The translations under genes were made by a program, and so were the position numbers. Below the pieces are notes generated by a model. It saw only the letters and a program-made list of their open reading frames with translations, was not told the DNA's origin and did not search any database. A DNA stretch of 52,726 nucleotides from an uncultured bacterium. GTDB taxonomy: Bacteria > Actinomycetota > Humimicrobiia > Humimicrobiales > Humimicrobiaceae. Of this stretch, positions 50,207 through 52,726 are shown piece by piece. The stretch lies in contig CBEVGD010000001.1 in assembly GCA_965549355.1 (NCBI GenBank), positions 1 to 52,726 of the forward strand, in the 5' to 3' direction. Each line of letters opens with the position of its first letter. Position 1 is the first letter of the stretch.

Positions 50207-51103
50207 ATGAAATTGTTTGAGAATACAGGGTTCAACAGGGATCATTATAGATCTTTCAAGGATCATAGTAATGAGTTAAAAGACGGAATAGGGGACCTTA
50301 AGGTCATATACACAGATCTTGACGGGACCTTTTTTAATGATCAGGGCTGCATAATAAAAGATGCAGAAGAAAAATATTATTTTGATGCTTTAAAGCTTCT
50401 TTCAAATATAAAGCAGAAGGGCTGGGAACTTGTGCTTGTATCAGGTAGAAATAAACACCAGCTCCGCTATAATGCCCAGATGATAGGAGTGGAAAACTAT
50501 ATTTCGGAACTGGGCTCAGAGCTGGTCTATGGTCTGGGGAAAGATGTGCATGTGACTTTTGATGATAATAAGGAGTGTTTCGACCTTACGTATAGAGGAA
50601 AGGACCTGATAAAGATAATAGATCTTTTAATGGAGGAATTTCCGGGAAAAATAGAGAGCCGGATGGAATGGAGCCGCTATCGTTCGTACAATGCTCTGTT
50701 TTTTGGTGAGATAGACCTCAGGAGGGCAAACGGCCTTCTTCAGAGAGAAGGTTATAAGGGACTCGTGCTGGTGGACAATGGTTTTTCGAAACTGATGGAA
50801 CTTGACCTGGATGTAGATAGGCTTCATATATATAATCTGATGCCTGCGGGAGTTACAAAGGCAAATGGTGTGAGGCTGGATAAGAAATTAAGAAATTTAA
50901 AAAAAGAAAATTGTATCGCACTTGGCGACTCTCTTGAGGATCTTAAAATGGCAGGAGAGGTCAAATATTTTTTCCTTATGAGGAATGCCCTTGAACACAG
51001 GGAGGAACTTGAAGAAGAGCTGGTTAAATATGATAATGTATATATAACAGAAAAAATAATGAACCGGGGCTGGAATGAGGTTATAAGCAGCCTGTTGGGA
51101 TGA
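50207..51103 (+). CDS. HAD-superfamily hydrolase (Cof/sucrose-phosphatase-like, IIB cap)
   Basis: 298 aa. Motif I is IYTDLDGTF, motif II LVSGR, and the C-terminal motif GDSLEDLKM. Confidence 0.6.
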   Translation: MKLFENTGFNRDHYRSFKDHSNELKDGIGDLKVIYTDLDGTFFNDQGCIIKDAEEKYYFDALKLLSNIKQKGWELVLVSGRNKHQLRYNAQMIGVENYISELGSELVYGLGKDVHVTFDDNKECFDLTYRGKDLIKIIDLLMEEFPGKIESRMEWSRYRSYNALFFGEIDLRRANGLLQREGYKGLVLVDNGFSKLMELDLDVDRLHIYNLMPAGVTKANGVRLDKKLRNLKKENCIALGDSLEDLKMAGEVKYFFLMRNALEHREELEEELVKYDNVYITEKIMNRGWNEVISSLLG

Positions 51104-51180
51104 GATACCTCAATGATATGAGAAATAATGGCCCCTCCCTCCCCCTTTGACCGATGGCAGACTCAATTTTGATTTATTTA

Positions 51181-51209
51181 TTGACATAGCAAATCTACTA
51201 TAGTAGACT
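51181..51209 (+). promoter_or_regulatory. Candidate promoter of the tRNA operon
   Basis: TTGACA (51181-51186), 17 nt, TAGACT (51204-51209), about 70 nt upstream of tRNA-Lys. Confidence 0.45.
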
Positions 51210-51277
51210 TTACGACTGCTAATTTAATTGGTCAGCTAATGGCCGGATGGTAAGGTTATTAGGTTAATGGTTAGCAT

Positions 51278-51353
51278 GGGCCGTTAGCTCAGTTGGTAGA
51301 GCACCGGACTTTTAATCCGGGTGTCGAAGGTTCGAATCCTTCACGGCTCACCA
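51278..51353 (+). tRNA. tRNA-Lys (anticodon UUU), CCA encoded
   Basis: Cloverleaf folded by hand. Acceptor GGGCCGT/ACGGCTC, anticodon loop CTTTTAA, T arm GAAGG-TTCGAAT-CCTTC, discriminator A. Confidence 0.95.
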
Positions 51354-51384
51354 GATTTTGTAAGTATGTGGTAAGTACGGTGAA

Positions 51385-51517
51385 GATGATTTGGGCGAAC
51401 ATGCCATTGGTGCATGTTTGCAGGATTCGAAAAGACGGACTGAGCTGAAAGCGAGGGAGTCTGCGTCTCTGCAGCGAGCAAAGCGAGACGAAAGAATGAA
51501 TCCTTCACGGTTCACCA
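51385..51517 (+). repeat. tRNA-linked structured element, copy A (ends in a 20-nt copy of the tRNA-Lys 3' end)
   Basis: 133 nt. Positions 36-119 are 78/84 identical to copy B. Hairpins at 51395-51421 and 51444-51452. The terminal GAATCCTTCACGGTTCACCA (51498-51517) duplicates 51334-51353 with 1 mismatch. Confidence 0.85.
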
Positions 51518-51523
51518 GTTATG

Positions 51524-51598
51524 GGCCTGTTCGTCTAGTGGTTAGGACACAAGGTTTTCAACCTTGCAACAGGAGTTCGATTCTCCTACAGGCTACCA
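51524..51598 (+). tRNA. tRNA-Glu (anticodon UUC), CCA encoded
   Basis: Acceptor GGCCTGT/ACAGGCT (G1-U72 wobble), anticodon loop TTTTCAA, T arm AGGAG-TTCGATT-CTCCT. Confidence 0.9.
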
Positions 51599-51602
51599 GA
51601 GA

Positions 51603-51678
51603 GGGCGCTTAGCTCAGTTGGGAGAGCACCTGCCTTACAAGCAGGGGGTCACAGGTTCAAGCCCTGTAGCGCCCACCA
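51603..51678 (+). tRNA. tRNA-Val (anticodon UAC), CCA encoded
   Basis: Acceptor GGGCGCT/AGCGCCC, anticodon loop CTTACAA, T arm ACAGG-TTCAAGC-CCTGT. Confidence 0.95.
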
Positions 51679-51700
51679 TTTTTGACCGGTTTAGTTTTGC

Positions 51701-51777
51701 GGAGCTGTCGTCTAGTGGTTTAGGACACATGCCTGTCACGCATGAGATCGCGGGTTCGAATCCCGTCAGCTCCGCCA
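51701..51777 (+). tRNA. tRNA-Asp (anticodon GUC), CCA encoded
   Basis: Acceptor GGAGCTG/CAGCTCC, anticodon loop CTGTCAC, T arm GCGGG-TTCGAAT-CCCGT, discriminator G. Confidence 0.95.
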
Positions 51778-51808
51778 GAAATTAATTGTGTTTAGGCGGT
51801 ATGATCGG

Positions 51809-51941
51809 AATGACTTGGGCAAAATATGGTGGATCCATGTTTTGCAGGATTCGAAAAGACGGACTGAGACGAAGTCGAGGGAGTCCGCGTCTCTGCAGCG
51901 AGCAAAGCGAGACGAAAGAACGAATCCCGTCAGCTCCGCCA
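51809..51941 (+). repeat. tRNA-linked structured element, copy B (ends in a 21-nt copy of the tRNA-Asp 3' end)
   Basis: 133 nt. Hairpins at 51819-51845 and 51868-51876. The terminal CGAATCCCGTCAGCTCCGCCA (51921-51941) duplicates 51757-51777 exactly. The duplication continues 20 nt past CCA (51942-51961 versus 51778-51797, 1 mismatch). Confidence 0.85.
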
Positions 51942-51985
51942 GAAATTATTTGTGTTTAGGCCAGTAGGGCCGTATTTTCTTGAAT

Positions 51986-52061
51986 GGCGAGATAGCTCAG
52001 TTGGTAGAGCAGTAGACTGAAAATCTATGTGTCCGCAGTTCAATTCTGCGTCTCGCCACCA
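51986..52061 (+). tRNA. tRNA-Phe (anticodon GAA), CCA encoded
   Basis: Acceptor GGCGAGA/TCTCGCC, anticodon loop CTGAAAA, T arm CGCAG-TTCAATT-CTGCG. Confidence 0.95.
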
Positions 52062-52404
52062 TTTCTCAGAGCTCTTTAGGGCTCTCTGGCTCCTGGCTCT
52101 TTGCCAACAACGTGGCATTCCTCCCAATAATATGAGTGGTTCAACTCTGAATTCAACAATTCTTAAATAAATTATCAATGGTATTAAACTGTCCGATTTT
52201 AAAGTATAAATAATCCACTAAATAAGTTATTGATGAATACCTTTATTGATCTAAAGATATTAACCGAAACTTGACTTCGCAAACAGAATTATAACCCCAC
52301 AAATTGTTCTGTTAAAAATATTGCTCCAAACTGGCTTGTTTAGTACAATTAATATCAGGTTTTATAATAAAACAGATAAAGTTACATAAAATAGGCGGTA
52401 AAAT

Positions 52405-52599
52405 ATGAGTTCAATAACGCTCGAAAAAATTAATGAAAATATTATTGCCCTAAGACAGGAGCTTAGCATAATAAAGGAATATATCGAAGAAGAGGATATG
52501 GAACTTTCAGACACTGCTAAAAAGAAAATAGATGATTCAAGAAAAAGGCCGCTTTCGGAAATGAAGTCACAGGAAGAAATAGAGCAAAAATTTTTATGA
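52405..52599 (+). CDS. Small acidic coiled-coil protein, putative type II antitoxin
   Basis: 64 aa. Its stop overlaps (ATGA) the start of a RelE/ParE-like ORF. No family recognised directly, so the call rests on context. Confidence 0.4.
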   Translation: MSSITLEKINENIIALRQELSIIKEYIEEEDMELSDTAKKKIDDSRKRPLSEMKSQEEIEQKFL

Positions 52600-52697: not shown

Positions 52698-52726
52698 TCT
52701 AATCATGGAACAAAAACAATAATTTA

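Follow-up and report, generated by a model that had tools for sequence, protein, structure and literature searches.

A previously undescribed family of non-coding modules of ~165 nt lies directly 3′ of transfer RNA (tRNA) and transfer-messenger RNA (tmRNA) genes in uncultured Actinomycetota of the class Humimicrobiia. Two copies, module A behind tRNA-Lys(UUU) and module B behind tRNA-Asp, occur in a tRNA operon of the 52,726-nt stretch of DNA analysed here (contig CBEVGD010000001.1, positions 1 to 52,726; hereafter the window). Each unit consists, in this order, of a linker, a hairpin (H1), a three-way junction of the helices P1, P2 and P3, and a tail that repeats nucleotides (nt) 56–76 of the host RNA encoded just upstream. 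The insert, 143 nt without the tail, has no open reading frame (ORF). The unit behaves like an insertion: copies are gained and lost, duplicated in tandem, and truncated. The family is abundant and lineage-restricted, and apparently represents a new kind of tRNA/tmRNA-associated structured RNA element.

The two copies in the window and their hosts comprise the following features.

51278–51353, + strand: tRNA-Lys(UUU), host of module A, with T loop TTCGAATCC
51354–51394, + strand: linker of module A, A+T-rich, with the subfamily motif GGTAAGTACGGTGAAG
51395–51421, + strand: hairpin H1 of module A, GCGAACAUGC / GCAUGUUUGC, 10 bp with one G·U
51423–51429, + strand: P1 5′ strand ('guide') of module A, GGAUUCG, complementary to tRNA nt 56–62
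51433–51462, + strand: P2 arm of module A, with base AGAC/GUCU, internal loops with tandem G·A, and a tip hairpin at 51444–51452
51466–51496, + strand: P3 arm of module A, with junction pair U51466–A51496, P3a (51468–51470/51493–51495), palindrome CUGCAG, and P3b CGAGC-AAA-GCGAG (51475–51487) with tandem G·A
51497–51517, + strand: tail of module A, a copy of tRNA-Lys nt 56–76, divided into the P1 3′ strand (51497–51503) and the predicted unpaired acceptor 3′ strand with CCA (51504–51517)
51701–51777, + strand: tRNA-Asp, host of module B
51778–51818, + strand: linker of module B
51819–51845, + strand: hairpin H1 of module B, GCAAAAUAUGG / CCAUGUUUUGC, 11 bp with one U·G
51847–51920, + strand: core of module B, with P1 5′ strand (51847–51853), P2 (51857–51886) and P3 (51890–51920)
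51921–51941, + strand: tail of module B, an exact copy of tRNA-Asp nt 56–76, with P1 3′ strand (51921–51927) and predicted unpaired end (51928–51941)
51942–51961, + strand: relic of a second, truncated tandem unit, 19/20 identical to the start of the module B linker

An earlier, sequence-only reading of this DNA had described two structured elements of 133 nt, each ending in a copy of the upstream tRNA's own 3′ end. Both copies are present where that reading placed them. Core blocks of 22 nt and 34 nt each occur exactly twice in the window, both times on the + strand, and the number of occurrences expected by chance was 0 (100 shuffles). Pairwise alignment returned the six differences reported for the 84-nt core, four of which amount to two compensatory exchanges within a small hairpin (GCU-GAA-AGC in one copy, GAC-GAA-GUC in the other). 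It was also correct that the stem of H1 is kept despite its sequence changes, and that GGATTCG and the beginning of the terminal segment are complementary. In the alignment, the terminal segments of both copies match the preceding tRNA from its T loop to its CCA. The Lys duplicate is 20 nt long, counted from G57, with a single C-to-T change at 51510, and nt 56 (51497) has T for C; the Asp duplicate covers 21 nt and is exact. The length of 133 nt, in contrast, proved too short: each of the two natural units has 164 nt, counted from the first base behind the CCA of the tRNA up to and including the second CCA (51354–51517 and 51778–51941). Short ORFs that overlap the modules are mechanical and run into the tRNA genes, and were disregarded.

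The window copies scored 142 and 132 bits with covariance model R1 (E ~1e-37 and ~1e-34, respectively), and the window gave no match beyond these two. Across 94 fetched loci (584 kb) the same model yielded 160 matches, ~90% of them above 100 bits, with E-values down to 1e-38. Further copies, at least 160 in number, occur in metagenome-assembled genomes (MAGs) of Humimicrobiia-type Actinomycetota and in sediment metagenomes; they stand behind tRNAs and carry the cognate 3′ end, as the sequence-only reading had predicted. A degenerate 20-mer from the 3′ core, searched with one genome per species, returned 22 stretches, of which ~16 were genuine; all 22 came from MAGs labelled 'uncultured Actinomycetota' or Candidatus Hydromicrobium (class Humimicrobiia). 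A 21-mer from the 5′ core returned at least 120 stretches from JGI metagenomes, and three syntenic contigs (L001–L003) were reached via homologues of the neighbouring HAD hydrolase, for which no exact record was found; the copies behind their tRNA-Lys are diverged, decaying or internally deleted. No copies were found in viral contigs, PLSDB plasmids or GenBank phages, and carriage by phages or plasmids was rejected on these grounds.

No described RNA was found to correspond to these modules, in line with the sequence-only reading, which recognised no known family. In Rfam 15 at gathering score only the tRNAs of the window passed; at E ≤ 10 nothing overlapped the module cores in positions 51100–52200, and four further loci gave tmRNA only. 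Literature searches for a described equivalent returned nothing relevant.

Chance similarity or an assembly artefact was considered as well, since some contigs end inside modules, one module (in locus L003) contains an N-gap, and the tails in L132 and L003 are non-cognate. The architecture is nevertheless consistent over more than 160 copies, which come from independent assemblies and sources (NCBI, ENA, JGI and Logan), the E-values are very low, and recombination between neighbouring modules accounts for the non-cognate tails. Hence, this explanation is effectively refuted.

The position of the modules is highly regular. Nearly all of ~200 copies have a same-strand tRNA or tmRNA gene whose CCA lies ~70 nt before the start of the core, and the sequence after the core is the 3′ end of that host RNA, matching at 15 of 15 positions after GAATC in most copies. 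The hosts comprise ~17 isoacceptors plus tmRNA: Lys-UUU, Asp, three Arg, four Ser, two Leu, Pro, Met, Trp, Ala-GGC and Gln-CUG tRNAs, and tmRNA. The T loop of all hosts reads RA(A/G/U)UCC, with U60, C61 and C62. No fetched locus had a module behind the tRNAs Glu, Val, Phe, His, Lys-CUU or Gly-UCC. The tails of Arg-UCG modules track their cognate tRNA between genomes (GTGCCA, GCACCA and GTACCA). In three loci (L143, L034 and L083), modules with non-cognate tails are preceded by tRNA-like 3′ ends (e.g. AGTTCGAATTGGCTGCAACCGCGTCTGCCA) that neither ARAGORN nor Rfam recognised; these upstream genes may be degraded hosts.

Covariation in the enlarged family bears out the suggestion that the element is constrained by its structure. 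We scored a MAFFT alignment of 68 non-redundant modules against the hand-derived structure. In this alignment, 95.2% of the cells were paired and 14 of the 23 pairs were compensatory. None of 500 shuffles matched these values, and slid controls showed 29–46% pairing. In a model-fitted alignment (A3) of 133 distinct sequences, 24 of the 33 pairs were compensatory, including all 10 pairs of H1. An unbiased mutual-information scan revealed no strong column pair outside the proposed helices.

H1 has 10–12 bp and covaries freely. Across the family it contains 55 G·U but only 3 A·C combinations, which implies that the fold is selected on the tRNA-sense strand. Judged from these sequences, the selected structure would be an RNA or, less likely, single-stranded DNA. 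The base of P2 (RGAC/GUCY) alternates between A–U (44) and G–C (20); its internal loops are purine-rich with tandem G·A, and its tip hairpin either covaries or, in short forms, is missing. The junction pair is U–A in 48 and G–C in 19 sequences. The apical hairpin of P3 keeps the series C–G, G·A, A·G, N–N′, C–G, in which the central N–N′ pair of P3b is A–U (35), G–C (26) or C–G (7).

Two further observations concern the arms. At L138:2565–2717 an insertion of ~24 nt, forming extra GA-rich hairpins, is present in the tip of P2, which indicates that this arm tolerates expansion. At J2/3, the palindrome CUGCAG (window positions 51469–51474) becomes UACGUA or UACGUG in some copies (L039, L050, L052 and L095); such palindromes could support intermolecular (dimer) pairing.

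P1 connects the module to its host sequence. Its 5′ strand, GGAUUCG in the window, pairs with tail nt 56–62 (or 63) and tracks the T-loop variants of the hosts, as GGATTCG/CGAATCC, GGATTTG/CAAATCC and GGACTTG/CAAGTCC. Further covarying pairs are GGAATCG/CGATTCC and GGGGTTCG/CGAACCCC. Modules occur only behind RNAs with a T loop that matches this strand. The covariation suggests that it serves as an internal guide, recognising nt 56–63 of the target tRNA.

The last 13 nt of the module, containing the acceptor 3′ strand, the discriminator and CCA, have no conserved partner and are predicted to be mostly unpaired. Cognate complementarity to the tail was detected neither in the linker (p = 0.63) nor in the H1 loop (p = 0.38). 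Hence, the tRNA-like 3′ minihelix proposed in the sequence-only reading does not describe the module: the T-loop part of the tail pairs within the module, in P1, and the acceptor strand lacks a cognate partner. Modules do resemble tRNA-like structures (the tmRNA domain, viral tRNA-like structures and bacterial Y RNA) in their acceptor 3′ strand with CCA and their T-arm sequence, but they lack the acceptor 5′ partner and the 5′ half of the T loop, and do not match the tRNA model. Three specific candidates were rejected. A pseudo-acceptor stem with the linker (GGUGAA/UUCACC) appeared in single-sequence folds, but cognate and non-cognate duplex energies were equal over 129 modules. A T-box-like pairing (UGGN:NCCA) between the H1 loop and the tail gave no cognate signal, and UGG is absent from many loops. 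Finally, the linker motif GGTAGAGC resembles a tRNA D arm, but an origin from a pseudo-tRNA is unsupported, as there is no match to the tRNA model.

The fold invites the question of catalysis. In such a reading, the module would be a small ribozyme that cleaves itself at the junction of module and tail, or that, by a P1-guided transesterification at nt 55/56, attaches itself to the 3′ part of tRNAs or exchanges it, with P1 in the role of a group I intron's internal guide sequence. The three-way junction has invariant unpaired purines (GAAA, GGA/GA and ACGAAAGA), the guide helix P1 ends exactly at the module/tail junction, and the topology read from the alignment is that of a type III hammerhead. 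Yet the junction strands are GAAAR, GCGKCUCUGCAG and ACGAAAGAM; on inspection, the hammerhead core CUGANGA ... GAAA is absent and a nested pseudoknot like that of the hepatitis delta virus ribozyme is missing. Moreover, no Rfam ribozyme matched at E ≤ 10, and 110 nt is small for a splicing ribozyme. We therefore consider a ribozyme quite improbable. Identity with a known ribozyme or with an omega RNA was rejected, as Rfam gave no match and the core nucleotides do not fit.

Other guide-bearing RNAs share features with the modules as well. Group I and group II introns are mobile structured RNAs that choose their target through a short helix between a guide and the flanking 'exon', comparable to P1, and their guide covaries with the target. 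The modules, in contrast, are far smaller, lack intron domains and any Rfam intron match, and sit behind an intact tRNA, pairing only with the downstream flank. The omega RNAs of TnpB and IscB likewise consist of a structured scaffold followed by ~20 nt equal to the flanking target. In the modules, however, P1 takes up the first 7–8 nt of this 'guide' as a paired strand, and neither a tnpB or iscB gene nor the ends of IS605 are present; furthermore, IS605 transposition makes no duplication, whereas the modules have one of 21 nt.

Comparison of loci shows how the unit comes and goes. The junction between tRNA-Lys and tRNA-Glu is empty in one contig ('ccaTTTGAggcct') and filled in another ('...CACCATTTGAggcct'), where it reads cca[164-nt unit ending ...CACCA]TTTGAggcct; the two differ by one clean unit. 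Similarly, the Pro–Gly spacer measures 5–10 nt when empty and 251–319 nt when filled. The presence of a module is polymorphic for most host tRNAs. Tandem copies are common and mostly near-identical, as unequal exchange between the 21-nt repeats would predict, and one locus (L098) has two different subfamilies in tandem.

After 27% of the terminal modules, 6–30 nt of another unit's linker follow, compared with ~0 in controls. Such truncated relics of tandem units also explain the extension at 51942–51961. The sequence-only reading had let the Asp duplication run on for 20 nt beyond CCA; the repeat exists, but it is the module's own 5′ linker and not the trailer of the tRNA. The start of the linker is conserved across host tRNAs, and is therefore part of the element rather than of the target's trailer; at the Lys locus the linker of module A is conserved in many loci. 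Truncated copies were found in L003, L021, L077, L089 and L105. In the closest relatives of the window, the Lys module is decaying (L001 and L002) or deleted (L003). Cores without an upstream tRNA are otherwise relics or chance 21-mers.

At L019:510–2570, an IS4-type insertion sequence (IS) is located inside the linker of a module behind tRNA-Arg(ACG); it encodes a 607-aa DDE transposase (PF01609) and has inverted ends TAAGTTTCTGACC. The loci were also searched for an autonomous parent element, whose ORF would separate tRNA and core; the idea was rejected, as this unrelated IS was the sole long insert.

Non-cognate tails are rare, and located where neighbouring modules could recombine. In L003 (11112–11866) and L132 the order is Lys-Glu-Val-Asp-module-tail(Lys)-Glu-Val-Asp, a partial duplication of the operon for which unequal crossover between the Lys and Asp modules is the best explanation. 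In L012, L136 and L137, the tail and the type of linker at the Arg(UCG) module are those of the Arg(UCU) module next to it (12–13 of 15 positions match), which suggests gene conversion between adjacent modules. At L032:4219–4607, the cores of two modules are 100% identical and share an unusual P3b hairpin (CUAAGCC-AGCA-GGCUUAG), while their H1 and linker are unrelated; cores thus appear to be homogenised within a genome.

These patterns bear on the possibility that the modules benefit their hosts. As a cis-acting RNA of tRNA operons, a module might promote processing or stability, or it might be a decoy or sponge that presents the acceptor 3′ strand and CCA to a tRNA-end-binding enzyme, a nuclease or a toxin, with rare duplication spreading the modules and gene conversion keeping them uniform. 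The tail is identical to the cognate tRNA even where that tRNA differs between genomes (Arg-UCG), the Lys- and Asp-site modules are syntenic in many genomes, ~90% of the covariance-model matches are intact (>100 bits), and the unpaired, CCA-ending tail looks made for recognition. Set against this are the presence/absence polymorphism at most tRNA types, the decaying, truncated or deleted copies in close relatives, the frequent tandem duplications and relics, and the IS inserted into one copy. The restriction to one bacterial class and one type of T loop is also more easily explained by targeting than by a tRNA-specific need. A processing or decoy role, as already raised in the sequence-only reading, may yet exist, but we rate a host benefit as rather unlikely.

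How might the units have been inserted? T loops of tRNAs are classic crossover sites of integrases, and the sequence-only reading had compared the arrangement to the attL/attR footprint of tyrosine-integrase elements. As in P4-type elements, an intact functional tRNA is followed by an insert and a displaced 3′ segment that starts in the T loop. The modules differ from these elements in their 143-nt, ORF-less insert without an integrase nearby, in the occurrence of one family at ~17 tRNAs plus tmRNA, and in an insert that is a covarying RNA fold using the repeat as a helix strand. In addition, the right junction of the module shares only five of the seven T-loop bases (nt 56–60) and reads AAC- or ACC-GAAT instead of TTC-GAAT. 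With ~17 tRNA species and tmRNA occupied, no integrase found in the window or among 80 ORFs downstream of modules, and no terminal inverted repeats, the footprint interpretation is not supported as it stood; a distant integrase might still act in trans.

More broadly, insertion could occur at the DNA level through a site-specific enzyme supplied in trans, in which case the conserved fold would be the recognition structure of the element. In one variant, a tyrosine recombinase would act at the T arm; such an enzyme needs identity over the whole overlap of 6–8 bp, which the AAC or ACC in place of TTC does not provide. The main rival of this kind is staggered integration by a Cas1- or casposase-like integrase, which would nick the strands 21 bp apart, at nt 55/56 and, on the other strand, after A76, so that fill-in duplicates nt 56–76. 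In agreement with such schemes, the duplication is constant in length, its left border is fixed in the T loop, and a target-derived tail explains why tails are cognate. The constant 21 nt may be a target-site duplication of fixed length, but could equally be a tail borne by the element or copied from the tRNA.

Casposons provide a precedent at tRNA-Pro: their integration uses a T-psi-C-loop segment as 'leader', and the 15-bp target-site duplication overlaps with the tRNA's 3′ end (PMC5137440). Casposon and CRISPR integration have in common with the modules a long duplication at the tRNA 3′ end, recognition of the T-psi-C loop, and arrays of repeat, insert and repeat. Casposons, however, have terminal inverted repeats, Cas1, PolB and a 14–15-bp duplication that overlaps the tRNA by 5 bp, whereas the modules have no inverted repeats, a 21-bp duplication wholly inside the tRNA, and no Cas1 in the DNA surveyed.

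Three results weigh against insertion at the DNA level. Firstly, terminal inverted repeats are missing: the first 30 nt compared with the reverse complement of the last 30 scored 4.08, against 4.10 for shuffles, which also rules out a miniature inverted-repeat transposable element or mini-casposon. Secondly, no enzyme was found. Among 80 ORFs located downstream of modules, in DNA within a few kb, we recorded each protein family with at least two matching ORFs; integrases, transposases, reverse transcriptases and Cas1 were not among the recurrent families (nor were Phage_integrase, OrfB and Y1 transposase), and none of the four was encoded by the 45 ORFs of the window. An integrase, reverse transcriptase, Cas1 or TnpB beside the modules or in the window was rejected accordingly. 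Thirdly, the strand-specific, G·U-rich helices, the tandem G·A pairs and the small GNA/GNRA-type loops point to an RNA fold rather than a duplex site. Moreover, a single integrase would have to serve ~17 tRNAs and tmRNA. Taken together, we regard DNA-level insertion as improbable. As a single instance, an ORF at L039:217–1338 (opposite strand, 555 nt downstream of a tRNA-Ser(GCU) module) has, by eye, a serine-recombinase-like N-terminus (MRVAIYARYSSENQ...), and may mark an island integrated nearby.

Retroelements offer another comparison. R2 elements, short interspersed nuclear elements (SINEs), retroviral tRNA priming and the Mauriceville retroplasmid illustrate co-transcription with a stable RNA, the use of a reverse transcriptase in trans, and complementary DNA (cDNA) extending from the CCA of a tRNA to its T loop. 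None of these elements is known from bacteria in this form. The modules differ in that no reverse-transcriptase partner was found in the DNA surveyed, they have no poly(A) or shared 3′ tail, and their tail has the sense of the tRNA and belongs to the fold. Of the other known kinds considered, namely integrative elements, miniature inverted-repeat elements and casposons, IS605 and omega RNAs, introns, known ribozymes and tRNA-like structures, the modules lack at least one defining feature each.

A non-autonomous element mobilised in trans, which the sequence-only reading had listed among its options, is the best general description, although mobilisation probably does not proceed via an integrase. 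The reading that we favour, with slightly less than even confidence, is that of a mobile element that depends on its RNA structure and is guided by the T loop. Tails are cognate at nearly every host, yet the same module subfamilies occur at many hosts. A tail carried by the element, as in Campbell-type insertion or the insertion of a circle by an integrase, would leave chimeric, dead tRNAs at new hosts; cognate tails at many hosts fit a tail that comes from the target. Among these, the RNA-type fold and the lack of DNA-transposon features favour a route via RNA.

A concrete and coherent retro-mobility scheme can be drawn up, although we rate it as rather unlikely. A tail-less module would bind nt 56–63 of a tRNA through the P1 guide. 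A reverse transcriptase would then start at the CCA of the tRNA and, at the nick between nt 55 and 56, pass over to the module's 3′ end. The resulting cDNA, or its circle, would recombine with the cognate tRNA gene via the 21-nt homology and produce the order tRNA–module–tail. Only cognate products would integrate cleanly, and others would be filtered out. It is likewise doubtful, but conceivable, that the family represents a new class of RNA-guided mobile elements in which a small structured RNA, possibly a ribozyme, binds the T loop and T stem of tRNAs and tmRNA through an internal guide, is joined to nt 56–76 of the bound RNA and returns behind the cognate gene via an RNA or cDNA intermediate. 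It would then be a 'tRNA-tail-capturing' retroelement of bacteria that has no ORF and whose choice of target is programmable.

Several observations count against a T-loop-guided element that moves via RNA. No trans-acting protein, whether a reverse transcriptase or another enzyme, was found within a few kb of the modules. CCA is encoded in all 264 distinct tRNA genes of the fetched loci, so that the clean junction at A76 is compatible with RNA and DNA routes alike. None of 12 tRNA-Gly(UCC) genes has a module, despite a suitable T loop. Many copies are syntenic and intact across diverged genomes, which also fits host function or upkeep by gene conversion, and cores can be identical within a genome where H1 and linker differ (as in L032). 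Finally, template switching exactly at nt 55/56 would be explained by the proposed geometry of P1 only.

If the favoured reading is true, the modules are a new kind of mobile or parasitic RNA of bacteria that inhabits tRNA and tmRNA genes but leaves them intact, reads its target by base pairing and has a guide that co-evolves with the T loop. They would also provide a compact natural scaffold of ~110 nt that presents a defined tRNA 3′ end, and that may serve as a handle on tRNA processing, CCA metabolism, toxins or priming. Furthermore, they may lead to a novel mobilisation activity in a class of Actinomycetota that is uncultured and has hardly been studied. At tRNA operons, the repeats cause assemblies to break and operons to be duplicated; both are relevant to the quality of MAGs and the annotation of tRNA genes in this lineage.

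The operon that contains both modules in the window consists of five tRNA genes on the + strand, in the order Lys-UUU, Glu, Val, Asp and Phe. In addition to the hosts and modules listed above, it has the following features.

51181–51209, + strand: putative sigma-70-like promoter upstream of the operon, TTGACA-17-TAGACT, proposed from the sequence
51524–51598, + strand: tRNA-Glu
51603–51678, + strand: tRNA-Val
51986–52061, + strand: tRNA-Phe, the last gene of the operon

The promoter-like site is conserved at the syntenic loci L001–L003, and no terminator-like sites were found inside the operon. This arrangement suggests that the modules are co-transcribed with the tRNAs; tRNA processing would then define their ends. 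Downstream of tRNA-Phe, from 52062 to the end of the window at 52726, the DNA is A+T-rich and contains only small ORFs without Pfam matches (for example, one of 64 aa at 52405–52599); this region may be the edge of an island at tRNA-Phe.

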